Shown in pieces: positions 1 through 9,521 of a stretch of DNA of 64,000 nucleotides (its first letter is position 1; each line of letters starts with the position of its first letter). Both the position numbers and the translations under genes were made by a program. Source of the DNA: Leucoraja ocellata (lineage: Eukaryota); assembly GCA_036785375.1 (NCBI GenBank), contig JAWMAR010001442.1, forward strand, positions 186,001-250,000, in the 5' to 3' direction. Under the pieces are notes generated by a model that was not told the DNA's origin, did not search any database, and was given only the letters and a program-made list of their open reading frames with translations.

Positions 1-835
1 GGCACCTCTACCCATTTAGGGTGAAGTTTGGCACTTGCTCCCTTATGGGAGATGCTGGTGCCGACATTCATTGCTGCCTGCTGCTGGTCAGTAAACGGCA
101 GCGATATCTGTGTGGCGGCGACTTCAGTTCTGTACTGACATCCGTAGCTGGCTGCCTGCTGTTCAGAACACAGCAGCAACGACTGTGGCTCTGCCCTGAC
201 GTCCATAGCTGGCTGCCTGCTTCTCTTCAGAATACGGCAGCGACGTCTGTAAAGAAACAAAGGTAAGGAAAAATTGTTCTTACCTGTGCTAGTTCTCAGC
301 CTGCCGTTTGGGAGGAACGTCCTTCCTCCCACAGCCCCACGGACCCCGTAGCGTAGGTCCTTGGGCTGCTGTCCGAGATGTCGGCTGACGGCTACGGAGT
401 ACTCACGGTACTGGCCGCTCGTCCCTGTCCTTCAGCCGCTTCAATCGGCTCCAATGCCACTAGCGACTGTATTGAACCCGGGACTTGTTGCTTCGCTTCC
501 CGCCCGGCAGCAGTGAATCTTGCCGGTGCGGGGAGCGACGTCGGGCACAGCTGTTTCCTCTCCCGAGGATTCGCGTGCCGTCGGCTGCTGCTGGCTGCTG
601 GCTGCCCGCTGTCTCCACGGTTCTCCCCTCCAGCTTTCCCGCAGCTTCTTGCATTTCCTACCTGCAAGGTAAGTGGGAAAAATTTTGCAGTCTGTTACCT
701 GCTTCTTTCCACTTACCTCTAGGGAGACGTCGTCTCCCACGTCTGACTCGTTCAATGCGTGTATGCGATATGGCACGCATGCGTCGTAGCGGGCTTCTTT
801 CACGTAGTCACTCACGTGACTCCGAAGTAAAATTG
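1..835 (-). mobile_element. DIRS1-type tyrosine-recombinase retrotransposon, 5' terminus (runs off window start)
   Basis: The end at ~797-835 (ttcacgtagtcactcacgtgactccgaagtaaaat) is the same terminal motif found in the DIRS elements at 44680-44715, 47584-47620 and 54275-54308. A GC-rich leader/gag-like region follows on the minus strand. Confidence 0.7.
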
Positions 836-1815: not shown

Positions 1816-1943
1816 TTACTTTATTTCACACTTTCCTGCCCAACAATGATACTGCTGGGTAGAACCATCTGAGAATGACACATTGAGATTACTCTGGTAG
1901 ATGAACTTCGGCAGACACTTCGAACAGCCGGGACATTTTCCAC
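1816..1943 (-). CDS. IgW: IgW/IgX short-form Cys-rich secretory tail exon (GGKCPGCSKCLPKFIYQSNLNVSFSDGSTQQYHCWAGKCEIK*)
   Basis: Polypyrimidine acceptor cttccatttccag at 1944-1956, phase 1, then a 42-aa open frame with 5 Cys and an NVS sequon, ending TAA at 1816-1818. Matches the Cys-rich C-terminal segment I recall for skate IgX. Confidence 0.9.
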
Positions 1944-2180: not shown

Positions 2181-2690
2181 CAGGTGAGTTGGACAGTTTG
2201 GGTGAGTGGGCAGATGCATGGCAGATACAGTTTAATGTGGATAAATGTGAGGTAGCAAAAATAGGAAGGCAGATTACTATCTTAATTGGGTCAAGTTGGG
2301 AAATGGGGAAGTACAATGGGATCTCGGGGTCCTTGTTCATCAGTCAATGAAAATAAGCATGCAGGTACTGCAGGGAGTGAAGAAAGCGAATGGCATGTTG
2401 GCCTTTATAACAAGAGGAGTTGAGTATAGGAGCAAAGAAGTCCTTCTGCAGCTGTACAGGGCCCTAGTAGAGACCACACCTGGAGTATTGTGTGCAGTTT
2501 TGGCCCCCTAATGCGTGGAAGGACATTCTTGCTATTGAGGGAGTGCAGCGTAGGTTCATCAGGTTAATTCCCTGATTGGCGGGACTGTCATGTGCTGAGA
2601 GAATGGAGCGGCTGGGCGTGTATACCCTGGAGTTTAGAAGGATGAGAGGATATCTTATTGAAACATATAAGATTATTAAGGGTTTGGACA
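2181..2690 (+). mobile_element. CR1 LINE ORF2 fragment, truncated at both ends, inside the CH1-tail intron
   Basis: LGEWADAWQIQFNVDKCEV, KKANGMLAFITRGVEYRSKEVLLQLYRALV and GYLIETYKIIKGLD motifs. It stops abruptly at ~2690 with no CR1 3' UTR or tail. Confidence 0.9.
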
Positions 2691-2739: not shown

Positions 2740-3045
2740 CTTGAGGCTTCGGGAACGCCGTTATTACCATGTTGTCTGGCTTGGATCCTGCCATGCAGTA
2801 GTAGGCATTCCTGTTCCAATCTGCTACAGAGACTCGCAGCAAGCTGCTCATTGTGTACTTGTTGTTTTGTCCCAACACTGGTGGGTACTTTGTGATTCCA
2901 TTGTTGATGACCCCACTGCTGGTGGACCATGTCTGACTGATGATCTCAGGCAGGTAGTCCTTGACCAGACAGAGGATGCTGATCTCTTGGCCAGATTCTG
3001 TGTTGCAGGAAGAGGTGATGTGGACTGAAGGCAAAACCACATCCT
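2740..3045 (-). CDS. IgW: IgW/IgX heavy-chain constant domain CH1 exon
   Basis: Acceptor atttccatttcag at 3046 and donor GTTAGT at 2739, phase 1-1, 306 nt. Encodes EDVVLPSVHITSSCNTESGQEISILCLVKDYLPEIISQTW...YTMSSLLRVSVADWNRNAYYC..., a C1-set domain with C-W-C and an extra N-terminal Cys (likely light-chain bond). Confidence 0.93.
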
Positions 3046-8251: not shown

Positions 8252-8290
8252 CACACTGATTCATTTTCCCACTCAGTCAGTACAATAACT
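8252..8290 (+). other. JH recombination signal: heptamer CACACTG, 23-bp spacer, nonamer ACAATAACT
   Basis: Heptamer 8252-8258, spacer 8259-8281, nonamer 8282-8290. Confidence 0.88.
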
Positions 8291-8616: not shown

Positions 8617-8682
8617 AGTTTTTGTTCAGCTCTCCACCGCCGTGGGCCAGTATACACGGTGATTCACCGCCGCTCACAAACT
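8617..8682 (-). other. IGHD: DH segment TATACTGGCC (8645-8654) flanked by two 12-bp-spacer RSSs
   Basis: J-facing RSS: CACGGCG (8644-8638), 12 bp, ACAAAAACT (8625-8617). V-facing RSS: CACGGTG (8655-8661), 12 bp, TCACAAACT (8674-8682). Confidence 0.9.
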
Positions 8683-9009
8683 GCGCTACCACATCCAGTC
8701 CGAAATCCAACACTGGCCAGAGTGGACAACGGTTTAATTAAAGCCCCGTCCATGTGTGTCCATGTGTCCCACACAGCAGTGTCCAGTCTCGGCCATTGCA
8801 GCCCTGTAGTGAACAGGAGATAACCCACCGCGACTGTCACCGTGCCTCGACCCACAGCGGCTCCTCGCTGTTTGTGTTCCCACATCTCCAGTGGAACTTG
8901 TTCCCTGTGCCAGATGATGCACTCTGGATCTGGTTTATATCCACGGGTCCCGAGGAAAGGCGGCGGCGGCAGCGCCCAGAGACGTGATTTAAAGCGTTTG
9001 GCTGCGGCA

Positions 9010-9047
9010 GGTTTTTGTATTGATGAAGTCCCATCTCTCACACTGTG
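9010..9047 (-). other. RSS 3' of the V(D1) exon: CACAGTG, 22-bp spacer, ACAAAAACC
   Basis: Consensus heptamer at 9047-9041 and consensus nonamer at 9018-9010. Confidence 0.95.
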
Positions 9048-9357
9048 CCACCCGTATAGTCTCTCGCACAGTAATAGGTGGCCGTGTCGGCCAGACTCAG
9101 GCGGGTCATTTGGAGATAGACGTTGCTGCTGTCCGAGGAAACCTCGAATCGGCCGCTGAAGGCTGGCGCGTACAGTTTGCTGCTACCCCTCACTCTACCC
9201 ACCCACTCCAGCCCTTTCCCGGGGACTTGTTTCACCCAATGCACGGAGTAGTCGCTGAGGGTGAACCCGCTGGTTGCACAGGTCAGTTTGAGGGACTCTC
9301 CAGACTTTGCCACCTCGGTCGGTTTCTGATTCAGCACTGATTCAGCGGATCGAACGC
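9048..9357 (-). CDS. IGHV: VH exon of IgW/IgX family, probably germline-joined to D1
   Basis: Acceptor ttttattgacag at 9358. Open frame GVRSAESVLNQKPTEVAKSGESLKLTCATSGFTLSDYSVHWVKQVPGKGLEWVG...DTATYYCARDYTG with canonical Cys/Trp/Cys. Confidence 0.96.
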
Positions 9358-9475: not shown

Positions 9476-9521
9476 CTGGCAGACAGGACAGAAGGAGACA
9501 GAGATAAGCAGCGACCCCCAT
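9476..9521 (-). CDS. IGHV: VH leader (signal peptide) exon MGVAAYLCLLLSCLP(G)
   Basis: ATG at 9521, hydrophobic 15 aa, phase-1 GTGGGT donor at 9475, 118-nt intron to the V exon. Confidence 0.92.

Follow-up and report, generated by a model that had tools for sequence, protein, structure and literature searches.

The window, by which we mean the whole stretch of 64,000 nucleotides analysed here, carries on its minus strand a skate IgW V-D1-D2-J-C cluster in which V is already fused to D1 (Table 1). The V exon is identifiable as that of an immunoglobulin heavy chain, with GRVRGSSKLY as its CDR2, and its frame is open from 9355 to 9050, ending in ...YYCARDYTG. It is confirmed, as the preliminary description had reported, that the CAR codons are followed by 14 nt in frame (9061-9048) and then by a recombination signal with a 7/7 heptamer, a 22-nt spacer and a 9/9 nonamer; the chance expectation of a perfect signal with a 22-nt spacer is about 1e-4 per window. 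The positions of the signals also bear out that a single free D is left, flanked by 12/12 signals, that J carries a 23 signal, and that the nonamer-to-nonamer gaps on either side of the free D are 327 and 326 nt. The leader, V, J, CH1, short tail and CH3-CH6 are all open with normal splice sites, and the gene has the layout of a minicluster, that is, one V, D segments, one J and C exons. At the start of FR1 (9340-9352) there is a private gain of 3 nt that copies the neighbouring sequence, giving RSAESVL in place of RSAVVL.

Table 1. Features of the IgW cluster in the window, from the leader towards the constant region
Feature	Position	Strand	Remarks
Leader exon (MGVAAYLCLLLSCLP)	9476..9521	-	GT donor intact
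IgW VH exon, open	9060..9357	-	germline V part stops at 9060; 76-83% identity to skate Ig heavy chains
D1 coding bases fused to V	9048..9059	-	12/13 nt of D1; A at 9060 common to V end; N bases absent
D1 3' recombination signal	9010..9047	-	22-nt spacer; consensus heptamer and nonamer; one private spacer change
D1-D2 interval	8683..9009	-	327 nt nonamer to nonamer; as in split paralogues
D2 5' signal	8655..8682	-	12-nt spacer; weak nonamer, identical in split paralogues
D2 coding segment	8645..8654	-	10 nt
D2 3' signal	8617..8644	-	12-nt spacer
J signal	8252..8290	-	23-nt spacer
JH segment	8204..8251	-	WGAG motif; GT donor
IgW CH1 exon	2740..3045	-	open; splice sites intact
2.1-kb deletion removing CH2, approximate breakpoint	2688..2690	-	CH2 lost
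IgW short-form secretory tail exon, cysteine-rich	1816..1943	-	41/41 aa identical to P0010 tail
4.8-kb insertion, outer end	1..830	no strand	runs past window start; common only to the C2945 sister; CH3-CH6 beyond

Ten IgW clusters were found in the assembly, the same set whether the DNA of the V-J region or the CH1 protein served as query; this count is a lower bound (at least 10) and may include alleles. Five of them are fully split V-D1-D2-J clusters (one on the window's own contig C1442, two on C1015 and two divergent ones on C128), and in a further one, on C481 at ~1.218 Mb, V is free and D1 is joined to J with one extra base, D2 being absent. The earlier alternative that all paralogous V genes would carry the long extension and a single D is thus contradicted by six of the ten clusters, both divergent C128 outgroups included, which keep V apart from D1 and retain the V 23-signal and the D1 5' 12-signal. 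V is fused to D1 in the other four: the window cluster and its sister on C2945 (~51.5-52.0 kb) have one joint, and the clusters on C3005 and on C481 at 1.456 Mb have a second joint that is 2 nt shorter. The C2945 sister carries, in addition to the joint found in the window, a D2-J joint trimmed by 6 and 3 nt, which makes it a VD-DJ cluster, and it has a stop in CH1. One 22/12 step would be left in this VD-DJ cluster. The D1-J joint of the C481 cluster at 1.218 Mb requires either a lost D2 or a 22/23 pairing. The V end of that same cluster lacks 4 nt and is changed immediately ahead of its own signal, possibly a scar of cutting and rejoining. Altogether some join is present in five of the ten IgW clusters; that half of the clusters carry joins, and that the window cluster is without CH2, goes beyond what was noted in the preliminary description.

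With regard to isotype, sequence similarity places the window cluster in the IgW (IgX) class. Its CH1 has 93% identity to P0004 (a little skate gene model) and 90% to P0010 (a little skate cDNA record), its V 77-83% identity to IgW-family V, and its CH3-CH6 95-98% identity to skate IgW/IgX records. Protein identity also puts the source animal, a skate, near the little skate. The database labels of P0010 and P0004 are generic, and we take the two to be IgW/IgX in part from a passage of PMC5192425. A long cysteine-rich secretory tail is described there as a mark of short-form IgW (PMC5192425). The skate IgW/IgX heavy chain represented by P0010 and P0004 is like the window cluster in CH1, short tail and CH3-CH6, and differs in that CH2, part of the IgW norm of six to eight C exons, has been deleted from the window cluster and from five of the nine others. 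The window cluster does have CH1, CH3-CH6 and at least one additional pair of CH3/CH4-like exons. Among the 10 clusters, the six without CH2 (identical breakpoints in five, remaining exons open) are the window cluster, C2945 and four clusters with a free V, three of which are fully split; the two clusters on C1015 and the one on C481 at 1.22 Mb are among them. CH2 is retained in C3005 and in C481 at 1.456 Mb. The loss of CH2 is a derived state. Beyond the secretory CH6 exon there are additional CH3/CH4-like exons of greater divergence, on C1442 at ~169-170 kb and on C2945 at ~21-27 kb, and no transmembrane exon was picked up past CH6 by a simple motif scan. The 4.8-kb insertion in the tail-CH3 intron (C1442:182062-186830) has inverted ends, internal complements of both ends and no long ORF, and may be DIRS-like.

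The structure of the V-D1 joint becomes clear when it is set against the three close split clusters, in which V ends 2 nt past the CAR codons at a 23-spacer signal and a 13-nt D1 lies 275 nt downstream of the V end, flanked by a 12 signal on its 5' side and by the same 22-spacer signal on its 3' side. Since joined and split copies are ~98% alike, the window joint is readable base by base. Missing from the window are 276 nt (305 - 29 = 276, 1 nt beyond a flush join), comprising the V signal and the D1 5' signal, what lies between the two, and a single base; relative to the split paralogues, a 12/23 signal pair and the DNA between its members have been removed at the coding borders. The preliminary description took the 14 extra bases to be D1 joined to V, which is right for 12 of them (9059-9048, a 12/12 nt match to the D1 variants of the split paralogues), the other 2 being the normal V end. 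There are no added bases, and there is a one-base overlap in which the A at 9060 can be assigned to either side. The extension had also been likened to the free D, now identified as D2; its source is D1, and the 22-spacer signal behind it is D1's own. From the D1 3' signal through J the window matches the split clusters, with 4 differences in 393 nt across the D1-D2 stretch of the nearest ones, so that the comparison with unjoined IgW clusters that had been proposed finds D1 coding bases, 22-nt spacer and downstream interval all in agreement. In contrast, the near-equal gaps around the free D, to which the preliminary description drew attention, are no evidence of joining, because a split paralogue is spaced alike (heptamer-to-heptamer 393 and 393 nt).

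We conclude with high confidence that V and D1 have been fused in a skate IgW minicluster, most likely by RAG in an ancestral germ cell, and that the fusion has been inherited. This agrees with the main proposal of the preliminary description, that V was joined to D1 in the germline to leave a VD1-D2-J cluster, which gains support from the split paralogues and, as to its germline status, indirect support from the same joint in C2945 at 1.2% divergence. In the mechanism that we propose, RAG would have paired the V 23-signal with the D1 12-signal in a germ cell of an ancestor, and the coding ends would have been joined over the one-base overlap without TdT. The joined allele would then have been inherited and have duplicated or diverged into the two copies seen in the window and on C2945, the latter of which would later have taken a second germline join (D2-J) and the CH1 stop.

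The signals that remain in the window also obey the 12/23 rule, in that the D1 22-signal can be matched to one D2 12-signal and the J 23-signal to the other, and both pairs are intact. They are in keeping with the proposal of the preliminary description that the cluster may still recombine. Under this rule VD1 cannot join J directly. A B cell would need two steps only, VD1 to D2 and D2 to J, with one of the three junctions fixed and the frame set later; shark loci, according to a passage of PMC2435157, rearrange in any order. In the resulting chains CDR3 would open with CARD(Y)(T)(G), any trimming coming from the right, and the constant region would lack CH2, the products being CH1-tail or CH1-CH3 onward.

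It is somewhat more probable than not that the window cluster is used at all. The CARDYTG junction was found in 0/21 stored proteins other than the query, 11 of which have a readable junction. A search with the window V among proteins of near length left 0/11 candidates passing 1e-30, and among those of longer length 9/89 passed 1e-20, none with the CARDYTG junction. There is a substantial, if smaller, chance that the join is germline but the cluster silent or decaying, in which case the join would be a neutral accident. The deletion of CH2 and the 4.8-kb element in the tail-CH3 intron of the window cluster are consistent with decay, as are the CH1 stop in the C2945 copy and the statement in a passage of PMC2193156 that no expression was found of the joined heavy chains of the horn shark. 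On the other hand, the coding exons and splice sites of the window cluster are preserved, the loss of CH2 is common to three fully split clusters, and the promoter region hardly differs from that of the split clusters.

The attribution of the joint to RAG, as opposed to an ordinary deletion, depends on where its ends lie. We considered deletions of at least 200 nt within the V-J interval (446,040 placements) and compared their ends with the coding-side borders of the signals. Only 24/446,040 placements (5e-5) ended within 1 nt of two signal borders and 486/446,040 within 8 nt; the window joint falls in the first class, and the D2-J joint of C2945 and the D1-J joint of C481 in the second. Moreover, the V-D1 and D2-J joined pairs obey the 12/23 rule. 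The window joint alone also fits microhomology repair, because the three bases GAC are common to both breakpoints and P bases, which would attest a hairpin step, are absent; as these features leave the joint itself ambiguous, it is from position and recurrence that we infer RAG. An ordinary inherited deletion, repaired over the 3-base microhomology, could have taken the V-D1 interval without RAG, in keeping with the shared GAC, with the absence of both N and P bases and with the fact that other deletions, such as the loss of CH2, occur in IgW clusters. We consider this quite improbable in view of the deletion ends, both of which lie within 1 nt of signal borders, of the 12/23 pairing of V with D1, and of the other joins in the family, which end at signal borders too. 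Shark germline joints described in PMC2193156, as far as its passages cover them, have little TdT activity and cleanly removed signals.

The RAG-made joint that we favour is very likely inherited, since the C2945 sister has the identical joint and the private insertion yet has diverged by ~1.2%. The two V exons are the closest in the set (9/282 differences, versus 30-56 to the other 8 clusters), and the 4.8-kb insertion occupies the same site in these two only, the site being empty in 8/10 clusters; the two insertion copies differ at 59 of ~4,776 aligned positions (~1.2%). A joint without N bases can recur, and identity of the joint by itself is no proof of descent. That the assembly has captured a partial rearrangement (VD-D-J) made somatically in lymphocytes or thymocytes is very unlikely. 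It is true that VD-D-J, VD-DJ and V-DDJ products of IgM loci occur in such cells of the nurse shark (passages of PMC2435157), that the tissue of the assembly is not given, and that two of the joined contigs are shorter than 100 kb. However, the same joint occurs in two clusters with a private insertion and 1.2% divergence, the second joint type is likewise present twice, and 5/10 clusters would each require a lymphocyte clone that outvoted the germline reads. Neither do the promoter and introns of the window cluster carry an excess of private changes (3-10 differences in ~610 nt from the main-family paralogues).

Public sequencing runs bear on the same question. We compared 4 runs (of 24 listed) with a split cluster, over the stretch from past the V signal to beyond J. 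The window joint appears in 0/4 of them, which would agree with a somatic origin; this is a hole and not an absence, because the V end lies outside the compared stretch and run X1 is uncovered over most of the V-D1 interval, and the records may be filtered. In run X1, possibly the source sample, the D1-J joint of C481 occurs, extra base included, at a depth of 22.9 beside a split D1 contig at 24.1, contig depths that are not copy numbers. The C481 D1-J joint is not shown by run X3, which has the same organism label as X1; a different D2-J joint is present in run X4 (another organism, on L010:1885-3100), and run X12 (a third organism) shows no joint. Run X4 also has a V end that runs straight into the D1 3' signal, D1 and the first four heptamer bases being gone.

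A one-D cluster type with a V that naturally ends late at a 22-spacer signal, for which the open V frame through the extension might speak, is refuted by the split paralogues, in which V and D1 lie apart (6/10 clusters, both C128 outgroups included) and the extension and signal belong to D1, and we give it practically no credence.

It seems that V-D1 joining has occurred more than once in this family. The window and C2945 clusters form a clade in the trees of CH3-CH6 (100/99) and of the V exon (99/100); the J-CH1 tree leaves this grouping unsupported, C481 switches partner between regions, and the tree of the upstream region and J intron leaves the 8 main-family rows mostly without resolution. 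The IgW clusters are mosaics that exchange sequence, and the joint could also have spread by conversion, likewise in the germline. The simplest reading of these sequences is one join before the window and C2945 clusters parted, then a second join in C2945, and it holds whether the two are paralogues or alleles; the flanks of C2945 are not clearly closer to the window than are the flanks of other clusters. All four VD1-joined clusters as one clade are rejected in CH3-CH6 (AU p 7.9e-9) and not rejected in J-CH1 (p 0.081) or the V exon (p 0.155). Two separate V-D1 origins are likely on these comparisons, because the window and C2945 are without CH2, like four free-V clusters, while C3005 and C481 at 1.456 Mb keep it. 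The second V-D1 joint could nevertheless have arisen from the first through the loss of 2 nt and a single substitution.

That V(D)J segments can be joined in the germline of sharks and skates has been established for decades; the contribution of the window lies in the IgW class, in split paralogues of near identity and, probably, in serial joining. Passages of PMC2193156 describe heavy-chain clusters that are rearranged, partly rearranged or split, with VD and VDD joined genes in the shark germline; VD-J and VD-DJ germline clusters are reported in a passage of PMC5192425, and the VD-J, VD-DJ and VDJ forms are covered by passages of PMC5192425, PMC4279169 and PMC6795676, whereas passages of PMC12227049 contain nothing further on joins. 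The partly germline-joined IgH clusters of sharks and skates are like the window in being V-D1-D2-J-C miniclusters with fused segments and removed signals, and C2945 corresponds to their VD-DJ form. They differ in that those in the literature, in the parts covered by our search, are IgM or unspecified heavy chains, whereas the window cluster is IgW. In the titles, opening parts of abstracts and passages covered by our search we found no description of a joined IgW cluster, and an earlier case may well exist elsewhere in the literature. A second difference is that heavy-chain joints have been hard to dissect, joined and split genes being divergent (a passage of PMC2193156), in contrast to the ~98% likeness within the window family.

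A close parallel is offered by the germline-joined NS4 (kappa) light chains of the nurse shark (passages of PMC2193156). As in the window family, joined genes stand there beside split ones in a single young family, with repeated origins of joins, clean removal of the signals and little TdT activity. NS4 light chains finish in one step, whereas the window heavy-chain cluster keeps two, and one descendant has probably taken a second step in the germline. The somatic 1R VD-D-J products of nurse shark IgM loci (passages of PMC2435157) have the same configuration as the window and indicate that VD-D-J can be an intermediate. Those products are clonal, occur in lymphocytes and thymocytes and are absent from red cells, in contrast to the window joint, which is present in two diverged genomic copies.

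The use of partly joined heavy-chain clusters is left open in the passages of PMC2193156. In this respect the window gene has its value as a test case, with an exactly readable joint and a V that has a distinctive CDR2 and a fixed CDR3 start, and the IgW family appears to preserve the traces of two germline joins made one after the other in a single lineage. We put forward, as a speculation that we regard as rather doubtful in its entirety, that skate IgW clusters may have been consumed stepwise by germline RAG within the last few million years, one lineage passing from split to VD1-D2-J (the window) to VD1-D2J (its C2945 sister), with at least three other joints being separate, some of them perhaps segregating between individuals, and with the window copy giving rise to an IgW chain that lacks CH2 and whose CDR3 begins in a fixed way.

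Two further observations concern the paralogous clusters. The main-family V exons differ from one another at 30-45/282 nt, as against ~1-2% in their flanks, and the changes are concentrated in CDR1 and CDR2. Finally, C1015 carries two inverted IgW clusters (at 20 kb and 344 kb) that are 99.86% identical over 30.8 kb, and that represent either a duplication of very recent date or a pair of alleles placed by the assembly on the same contig.
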